Origin: a virus
Taxonomy: Monodnaviria > Loebvirae > Hofneiviricota > Faserviricetes > Tubulavirales > Inoviridae
DNA: 29,483 bases
Reading direction: 5' to 3' (one strand)
IMG/VR virus record: IMGVR_UViG_2851976983_000002
Made by a program: the position numbers and the translations under genes. The notes under the pieces were generated by a model. The model did no database searches. It saw only the letters and a program-made list of their open reading frames with translations, and was not told the origin of the DNA. How positions within the stretch are numbered: position 1 is the first letter of the stretch; each line of letters starts with the position of its first letter. Of the stretch, positions 244 to 323 are shown in pieces.

Positions 244-323
244 CCGCACCGCAGCAGGTTGGAGGCGAAGAAGGACGACGGGAGGAGGACGCCGACAACG
301 ACAACCTGCGAGGAGCGGAGCGC
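244..323. other. Conserved purine-rich element (GGAGG-rich about 40-nt loop) closed by inverted repeat GCAGGTTG/CAACCTGC (254..261 with 302..309)
   Basis: Core gaaggacgacgggaggaggacgccgacaacgaca is identical in variant B, where flanking sequence is otherwise unrelated. Copies at 8514..8593. Confidence 0.4.

Follow-up and report, generated by a model that had tools for sequence, protein, structure and literature searches.

Why do two filamentous prophages with different replication modules keep, within these modules, one short non-coding sequence in common? The question is raised by a stretch of 29,483 nucleotides (nt) classified in Inoviridae (IMG/VR record IMGVR_UViG_2851976983_000002). We call this stretch the window; it corresponds to positions 8704-38186 of the Escherichia coli 504211 chromosome (NZ_CP025865.1), where it adjoins hipBA in the dif region. 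The window contains four filamentous prophages in tandem, two of type A (1-8270 and 8271-16540) and two of type B (16541-24562 and 24563 to the end). Both types have the structural module and attP in common and differ in the replication/immunity module, whose initiator is of the Rep_trans family in A and gpII-like in B. The shared sequence is a hairpin of about 92 nt with a purine-rich loop. This element is real and strongly structured, and it is best read as a new variant of single-strand initiation signal (ssi) related to the scaffold of ssiA. From the comparison of the replicons that carry it, all of which replicate by rolling circle, we lean somewhat towards the view that it is their complementary-strand (minus-strand, or single-strand) origin.

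When unit A was compared with unit B by blastn, a single significant match was found within the specific modules (1-2587 for A, 16541-19171 for B); it joins 236-326 to 16636-16723, at 86.8% over 91 nt (E=4e-23). A preliminary description of this DNA had singled out a purine-rich core as the sole sequence common to both modules: the match is indeed the only one, although it covers about 91 nt where the described core has 33. Each of the four prophages of the window has a copy of the core (4/4). Upon folding, both versions adopt the same stem-loop architecture, in which an outer stem I leads through a short internal loop to an inner stem II, itself topped by a 40-nt loop rich in purines. The whole hairpin of A (235..328; second copy at 8505-8598) is matched by covariance model R1 at 103.7 bits (E=3e-23), on the + strand only, and that of B (16635..16725; second copy at 24657-24747) at 88.9 bits (E=2e-19), also on the + strand, as are all the parts of the element given below.

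In A, the 5' arm of stem I, CAGTCGTACCGCACC (236..250), pairs with the 3' arm GGAGCGGAGCGCCTG (312..326) according to the structural alignment and the pair counts, and the stem is imperfect, with A.A and T.C mismatches and one T.G pair. The 3' arm includes GCGAGGAGCGGAGCGCCTG, which resembles GCGAGGAAGCGGAAGAGCGCCTG of pBR322 (the pBR322-type sequence was confirmed). Stem II is formed by GCAGGTTG (254..261) and CAACCTGC (302..309); it can be read directly from the sequence, and its 3' arm is also placed by the structural alignment. It closes the loop GAGGCGAAGAAGGACGACGGGAGGAGGACGCCGACAACGA (262..301), which is nearly invariant in every recovered variant and within which GGCG (264-267) and CGCC (290-293) could possibly form a mini-helix of four base pairs (bp). 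In B, the 5' arm of stem I, CAGCCGTACCGCACC (16636..16650), pairs with GGGCGGTGCGGCTG (16710-16723), giving a 12-bp helix, CAGCCGTACCGC/GCGGTGCGGCTG, with one T.G pair, and the loop spans 16661..16700. The inner stem II is perfect in A and weakened in B. The preliminary description had placed the arms of A at 254-261 and 302-309 and those of B, CCGCACCGC and GCGGTGCGG, at 16644-16652 and 16712-16720, and these coordinates are exact. Its contention that a common loop is closed by different stems overstates the contrast, since the outer stem is homologous in A and B. Indeed, A also keeps CCGCACCGC (244-252), i.e., the 5' arm of what had been taken as the stem of B, and because of this, and because both copies share the outer stem I, the stems of A and B are partly homologous. 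Upstream of the element, B-type DNA contains a pyrimidine-rich run, TGTCCTGACCTC, absent in A, which can pair with the purine-rich loop and produce a competing fold (segment 16609-16700).

A search for the core in other genomes recovered a set of variants in which the same loop is set on different arms. The core occurs in 22 of 5426 complete E. coli genomes, in a 9.6-kb circle and in 2.7-kb plasmids of E. coli and E. albertii, in four IMG/VR contigs, in 15 metagenome contigs (plus one chance match), and in one 1.3-kb contig filed under Pseudomonas, which is probably a contaminant. Beyond these, a blastn comparison of the two junction regions with 50,697 phage records gave zero matches, a wider sampling of phages by their Zot protein returned near-identical contigs only, the core sequence was in no paper found in the literature, and the paper on the UPphi inovirus mentions neither hairpins nor origins. 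When the variants are aligned on the core, at least six arm types can be told apart in their flanks. Type A has the inner stem GCAGGTTG/CAACCTGC and the imperfect outer stem; type B the arms CAGCCGTACCGC/GCGGTGCGGCTG; type B' a stem I with two G.T pairs and a 7-nt deletion; type P the arms TCTGTACCGCTCC/GGAGCGGTACAGA; type Q the arms GCGCACAGTCCA/TGGACTGTGCGC, whose sequence is unrelated to that of the other types; and type R the arms CCCGCAGCGAGTTG/CAACTCGCTGCGGG, of 14 bp. The loop shows three substitutions across all variants (G/A in GGCGGAG/GGCGAAG, C to A in locus L018, and G to C in L002, the 9.6-kb circle) and is truncated at its 3' end in B'. Stems are poorer in B' and in the metagenomic variant L018.

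The arms pair well beyond what their composition predicts. Duplexes of cognate 5' and 3' flanks reach -19.5 to -22.7 kcal/mol, values attained by at most one of 1000 shuffles for A, B, P, Q, and R; the cognate arms are complementary in cis (z of -4 to -6), and non-cognate combinations are weaker unless they have an arm in common. Covariation was assessed on a structural alignment of ten variants that was fitted by hand, so that its counts lean towards structure. In this alignment, 85% of the cells are paired, against 22-48% with slid partners; 10 pairs show changes on both sides, which is matched by 1/500 shuffles; and the covariation score is 0.268 versus 0.157 (reached by 0/500 shuffles). 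Compensatory substitutions were found in both stems. One of them separates A from R, in whose stem II (GCGAGTTG/CAACTCGC in R) two adjacent pairs are swapped, A-T/G-C in A being G-C/A-T in R. At the same positions (columns 21-24 with 71-74 of alignment A3), types B, P, and Q have (CGAG)2, a self-complementary context that pairs through tandem sheared G.A, and the pairs of A and R there are Watson-Crick with swapped identity. These results support the idea, first proposed from A and B only, of a single-stranded structure whose loop is conserved while its stems co-vary, and the six arm types from other replicons strengthen it. Fixed G.T pairs in the common variants favour the + strand, which is a mild argument only, because singleton C.A cells are nearly as many as distinct G.T events.

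Outside this set, L039 (4330-4424), L041 (4140-4235), and plasmid L012 (1575-1659) retain stem I in a coreless 'mini' hairpin, CAGCCGCACCCG...CGGGAGCGCCTG, with CCGC/GCGG replaced by CCCG/CGGG, i.e., two compensatory changes. We rejected L039 and L041 as diverged forms of the element, given their different arrangement, and counted them solely as extra support for stem I.

The strand on which the hairpin lies is the next argument. The structural genes of the prophages are on the + strand, so that the strand displayed here is the packaged single strand, and in all phage copies the element is on this viral + strand. Five families of initiators are found among the carriers: Rep_trans, gpII-like (G2P), GPA-like replication endonuclease, Rep_1, and REP_ORF2-G2P. 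Despite this diversity, the element is on the strand of the rep gene in all seven replicon types (7/7), namely phage A (Rep_trans), phage B (gpII-like), the Sx181-type phage (replication endonuclease), the 9.6-kb circle L002, the p16F5-type plasmids (Rep_1), L017/L020 (weak Rep_trans), and L030 (G2P/GPA-like). The Rep_1 plasmids L003, L011, and L028 each have a single motif of the pC194/phiX174 type, CTTGATA, on the same strand as the element. We take this motif to mark the nick site in the Rep_1 plasmid family, which places the element on the displaced strand. Neither canonical ssiA nor another ssi-like sequence was found in these three plasmids with an ssiA hidden Markov model and a covariance model.

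These traits are those of the single-strand origins (sso) of rolling-circle plasmids, such as ssoA, ssoU, ssoT, and ssoW with their RSB and CS-6 sequences, which are non-coding, highly structured, orientation-specific, flexible in position relative to rep, and common to plasmids with different Rep families (PMC5703833). The element, likewise, lies on the displaced or packaged strand in a fixed orientation, varies in its position relative to rep, is non-coding with maintained pairing, and is independent of the initiator. Single-strand origins also contain a conserved recombination site used for crossover between plasmids (PMC5703833), a property that fits the mosaic arms of the element, its core being the sole homology of A and B, as well as a contig (L015) that is chimeric within the core. 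Since heterologous replication modules are homologous in the invariant core alone, this core is probably also a crossover point for module exchange, by analogy with RSB in ssoA. There are differences too: the element has no sequence similarity to the sso and lacks the TAGCG motif of CS-6, and the classes known so far, from Firmicutes, rely on RNA polymerase for priming, whereas the element is confined to Escherichia-type hosts and seems closer to a primosome site.

If the element is a complementary-strand origin, the + strand, either injected on infection or displaced during replication, would fold into the hairpin on single-stranded DNA coated with SSB. A priming system of the host would recognise it, since the five unrelated Rep families of the carriers exclude a partner encoded with the element. 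A primer would then be laid down, from which Pol III would turn the single strand into duplex. The leading candidate for the route is a PriA-type primosome, as for ColE1 ssiA or the n'-pas of phiX174, a suggestion drawn from the base of the hairpin, nearly a copy of the base stem of ssiA, and from the viral-strand ssiA of sister inoviruses, and one that we regard as tentative and rather doubtful. Priming by RNA polymerase or by DnaG alone is a possible alternative; a linear promoter scan found zero sites in or beside the element on either strand, and such a scan of duplex DNA is a weak test for a hairpin-formed promoter with -35/-10 boxes of the Ff type.

The likeness to ssiA concerns the base of the hairpin. 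ssiA of ColE1 is a PriA-dependent primosome assembly site (PMC3167613). In ColE1/pBR322 it serves lagging-strand priming. We confirmed the pBR322 ssiA at 100% identity in a plasmid collection, and found that thousands of plasmids have a conserved module of ~57 nt in unrelated surroundings. It is this ColE1/pBR322 site (n'-pas) that the flanks of types A, B, and P resemble. The ssiA consensus has a base stem CCGCT(CG)CC/GG(A)AGCGG whose 5' arm is followed by GCAG and whose 3' arm is preceded by GA. P-type elements have a perfect CCGCTCC/GGAGCGG with the same GCAG and GA; at this stem A has an A.A mismatch and B a bulged A. In full, ACCGCT(CG)CC-GCAG ... GAGG(A)AGCGG of ssiA corresponds to ACCGCT-CC-GCAG ... 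GAGG-AGCGG of type P. A covariance model built from canonical ssiA alone places all its best non-canonical matches on the P-type element, on the correct strand, with 17.6 bits and E ~0.08 (265 kb searched); it aligns ACCGCU--CCGCAG...GAGG-AGCGG and skips the interior. We consider this link suggestive, not proof. Further resemblances are that both are portable modules found with unrelated flanks in many replicons (~57 nt for ssiA, ~92 nt for the element), that the inner stem varies with compensation beneath a conserved loop, and that each is a hairpin of one strand, active only as single-stranded DNA in ssiA/n'-pas and, as proposed here, in the element. The interior differs, the element having its 40-nt purine-rich loop and stem II where ssiA has GACCGAACGTAGTGAGCGA, and the Q and R variants use entirely other arms.

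A viral-strand site of this kind is used by the sister phages. Related inoviruses of E. coli have a canonical ssiA between zot and gspD, on the viral strand (L040 at 2630-2689 and L041 at 2635-2694; E ~1e-10), and this zot-gspD stretch occurs in 22 E. coli genomes, at full length in 20 of them. In IMG/VR (loci L049-L082), ssiA is on the strand of zot in 17 of the 17 contigs that have both ssiA and a Zot homologue, and these include close (86-100%), 49%, and ~28% identity relatives of Zot. Two of the IMG/VR contigs with ssiA have two copies of it. The purine-rich core is in none of these 17 contigs (0/17), and canonical ssiA was not found in the inovirus contigs that have the core. Natural enterobacterial inoviruses thus have a primosome-type ssi on their packaged strand, this lineage having the purine-rich hairpin instead. 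The 22 genomes with the element and the 22 with the phage ssiA do not overlap, which we do not count as evidence because each feature has a frequency of 0.4% and zero overlap is expected by chance. Together, the strand, the five initiator families, the ssiA-like base stem, and the ssiA of sister inoviruses make a minus-strand origin or priming hairpin the favoured one among the functions listed in the preliminary description.

A number of observations weigh against this conclusion. The resemblance to ssiA is marginal (E of 0.08-0.15, in P-type relatives only) and concerns the base stem only. The copies of the window, A and B, are undetected by ssiA models at E<=10, be it with an nhmmer profile of 8 ssiA or with covariance model R2. 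The hexamer AAGCGG is common to the phiX174, ssiA, and ssiB sites. As part of n'-pas it is replaced in the element by GAGCGG in A and P and by GGGCGG in B, neither being present in Q and R, and variants Q and R are without ssiA-like arms altogether. The B copy, when folded with long flanks, has the competing alternative mentioned above. In L015 (NZ_CAKKMI010000165.1, 1269 nt), the core stands between a 5' arm of type P and a 3' arm of type Q that do not pair into a stem, perhaps owing to recombination within the core or to a chimeric or faulty assembly. This contig is filed as Pseudomonas brassicacearum, probably owing to enterobacterial contamination of the assembly. In the L039-type relatives, a purine-rich tract lies outside the hairpin, just upstream of the 'mini' form, and is more variable. 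The near-identity of the core could, in part, reflect recent horizontal spread and not selection. Finally, the small plasmids L015, L017, L018, L020, and L024 also carry canonical ssiA, on the opposite strand. In L017, ssiA is at 615-675 (+) and the element on the - strand, and in L020 ssiA is at 230-170 (-) and the element on the + strand, ~60-90 nt apart in these plasmids. Such opposite-strand pairs recall the ssiA/ssiB pairs of ColE1 or RSF1010.

The main rival explanation is that the viral-strand hairpin is the packaging (morphogenetic) signal recognised by the assembly proteins of this inovirus lineage, and that the plasmids carrying it are natural phagemids or satellites packaged by a helper phage. 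No sequence other than the element is found in phage A, phage B, the Sx181-type phage, and the small plasmids alike, and the phages that have it possess nearly identical structural modules (Zot at 99-100% identity), inoviruses with other structural modules having ssiA instead. Signals of this type are, as in Ff, equally strand- and orientation-specific. By blastn, what the small plasmids have in common with the phages is exclusively non-coding: the element, 369..456 of A just downstream of it (+ strand), a hairpin of B at 16564-16609, and 16770..16836 of B (+ strand), which contains the hairpin CGGGAGTTCTGTTACACCCG. The segment 369..456 is a candidate for the plus-strand origin of module A, and 16770..16836, by analogy with f1, for a gpII-type plus-strand origin, so that these candidate origins are present in the plasmids in the same orientation, as in a phagemid. 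This phagemid-like set of segments, together with the single lineage of structural modules, makes it possible that the hairpin is a packaging signal or has a dual role in packaging and priming, with plasmids replicated and packaged by dif-integrating E. coli inoviruses. Yet a packaging signal leaves unexplained the similarity of the base stem to a priming site, and the Rep_1 plasmids, which have their own nick site and no other ssi, would be left with no minus-strand origin. Moreover, large conserved hairpins are found in the backbone after the gene IV homologue (7375-8270), where the packaging signal of Ff sits, and the element is on the side of attP where the replication module lies. We judge packaging, alone or combined with priming, to be unlikely. 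If it were true, it would amount to a parasitism of phages by plasmids as yet undescribed for the filamentous phages of E. coli.

Other alternatives were weighed too. The hairpin could be a recombination scar, or a promiscuous short DNA spread among small replicons by homologous recombination, with flank complementarity that is incidental or inherited from an ssiA-like ancestor. A core ~100% identical among carriers with unrelated flanks is a typical mosaic junction, L015 would show exchange within the core, and the element is rare (the 22 genomes mentioned above). We nevertheless find a lack of function improbable: independent arm pairs (Q, R, and the inner stem of A) are each perfectly complementary (0/1000 shuffles), both stems have compensatory substitutions, and the orientation relative to rep is kept in every replicon type. 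A cis-acting or small RNA, either of + sense with GGAGG-rich mimicry of ribosome binding or a CCUCC-rich antisense that would control the small membrane-protein gene or the expression of the repressor, seems less probable still. The + strand RNA does fold into significantly stable structures (z of -3.3 to -3.7), A, B, B', and P have fixed pairs that are compatible with G.U on the + strand, and in A the element is upstream of the small membrane-protein gene, which is on the minus strand. However, in Rfam 15 the A element has zero matches at E<=10 and the sole overlap in B is a chance-level snoRNA (E=8); the promoter and terminator scan predicted no + strand promoter upstream of the element and no terminator after it; and the GGAGG runs are not followed by a start codon. 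Neighbour genes differ in every carrier, so that the conserved role cannot be tied to the membrane-protein gene. In A, the repressor transcript stops ahead of the element at an intrinsic terminator on the - strand (368..391, reported at 8661-8638 for the second copy), which lies between the repressor-like gene (477-692) and the element. The small RNA put forward in the preliminary description thus finds no support, and neither does its suggestion that the hairpin masks the ribosome-binding site of the membrane-protein gene, which cannot be the conserved function because this gene is missing from B and from most carrier plasmids. Its third proposal, an XerCD accessory site, fares no better: there is nothing Xer-like in the element, which is also present in plasmids far from dif-like sites. 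As for coding, open frames do cross the element in both types, e.g., a + strand open reading frame of 60 residues in B (16589-16771) and an extended one on the minus strand in A (1-399). These frames are not the same, as the preliminary description had noted, and the PGAP annotation has no coding sequence over the element. Between the A and B copies, the flanks show indels of 1, 2, and 3 nt, to which other variants add the 7-nt deletion. GGGAGGAGGACG is shared with the L039-type relatives in another frame relative to AAGAAG, and an open reading frame of 26 codons over the 'mini' hairpin of L039 and L041 is interrupted by TAA in L012. With frames that differ between A and B, indels that are not all multiples of three, an in-frame stop in L012, and no annotated coding sequence, we rejected the hypothesis of a piece of protein-coding sequence, to which we give almost no credit.

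A complementary-strand origin, our preferred explanation, can also be compared with the systems where such sites have been studied. Minus-strand origins are known in detail for the Ff phages and for the rolling-circle plasmids of Gram-positives; to our knowledge, those of temperate dif-integrating inoviruses and of small enterobacterial rolling-circle plasmids are essentially uncharted. In f1, the order is packaging signal, (-) origin, (+) origin, and gene II. Like the intergenic region of Ff (f1/M13), with its minus-strand origin [B][C] and packaging hairpin [A], the locus studied here has non-coding hairpins on the viral strand that immediately precede the putative plus-strand origin and the replication gene, and in B the order is the hairpin at 16564-16609, the element, the candidate gpII-type nick hairpin, and the gene II homologue. 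The element differs from the Ff region in that it matches no phage of the phage collection by sequence, that promoter-like hexamers were not found at it, and that attP (and, in A, a small gene) separates it from the gene IV homologue. In the enterobacterial rolling-circle plasmids pHW126 and pIGRK, an ssi-like palindrome is dispensable for replication and its loss leads to multimerisation and instability (PMC6854812). This is also an ssi-type hairpin in a small enterobacterial rolling-circle plasmid, and it differs, going by its description only, in being likened to the ssi of F, R6K, R100, and ColE2 and not to the purine-rich element (PMC6854812). If our reading is correct, the element would define a new class of signals for single-strand initiation, a compact structure of single-stranded DNA with an invariant 40-nt purine loop on interchangeable stems, which would tie these replicons to host priming, possibly to the PriA restart pathway. 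It would also explain the swapping of unrelated replication modules, because it is the only homology between them, and provide a practical marker for this group of phages and for the small plasmids with the same cis-acting sites.

Other features of these replicons were noted. The plasmids of 2-2.8 kb (L003 at 1495-1979; L011, L024, L028, L018, and L030) contain the non-coding segments of the phages in one orientation and zero phage genes, and may be satellites or natural phagemids of these inoviruses. Nearly all small plasmids encode a conserved open reading frame of 75-76 residues (MTADDRSIPE...), without Pfam match and always in the orientation of the hairpin (L003 1177-1404, L011 859-1086, L017 56-286, L020 560-790, L030 1938-2165, and others). 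In the window, the attP region (16443..16540, + strand; also 8173-8270 and 24465-24562) was identified from its sequence, as repeat family D14, and from the hipBA/dif context. It consists of two inverted dif-like sites, AGTGCGCATAATGTGTTACACGTTATGTTGAAAA and an imperfect inverse of AGTGCGCATAATGTGTTACACGTTATGTTGAAAA, around a GC-rich hairpin followed by a T run, a layout akin to the folded single-strand attP of the CTXphi type. The element starts ~95 nt downstream of attP in B and ~235 nt downstream in A. After the gene IV homologue (7606-8127 and its repeats, families D13 and D15), there are duplicated units of 65-86 nt that include a 17-bp hairpin and then a T run (8074-8111 and 16344-16381); they are present in two copies in A and one in B and are candidates for a terminator and/or a packaging signal. 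At the same hipA-proximal site, another E. coli strain (L047, NZ_AP045072.1 1598001-1648000) carries at least six prophages in tandem, with three types of replication/immunity module, and the hairpin is on the viral strand in each prophage.

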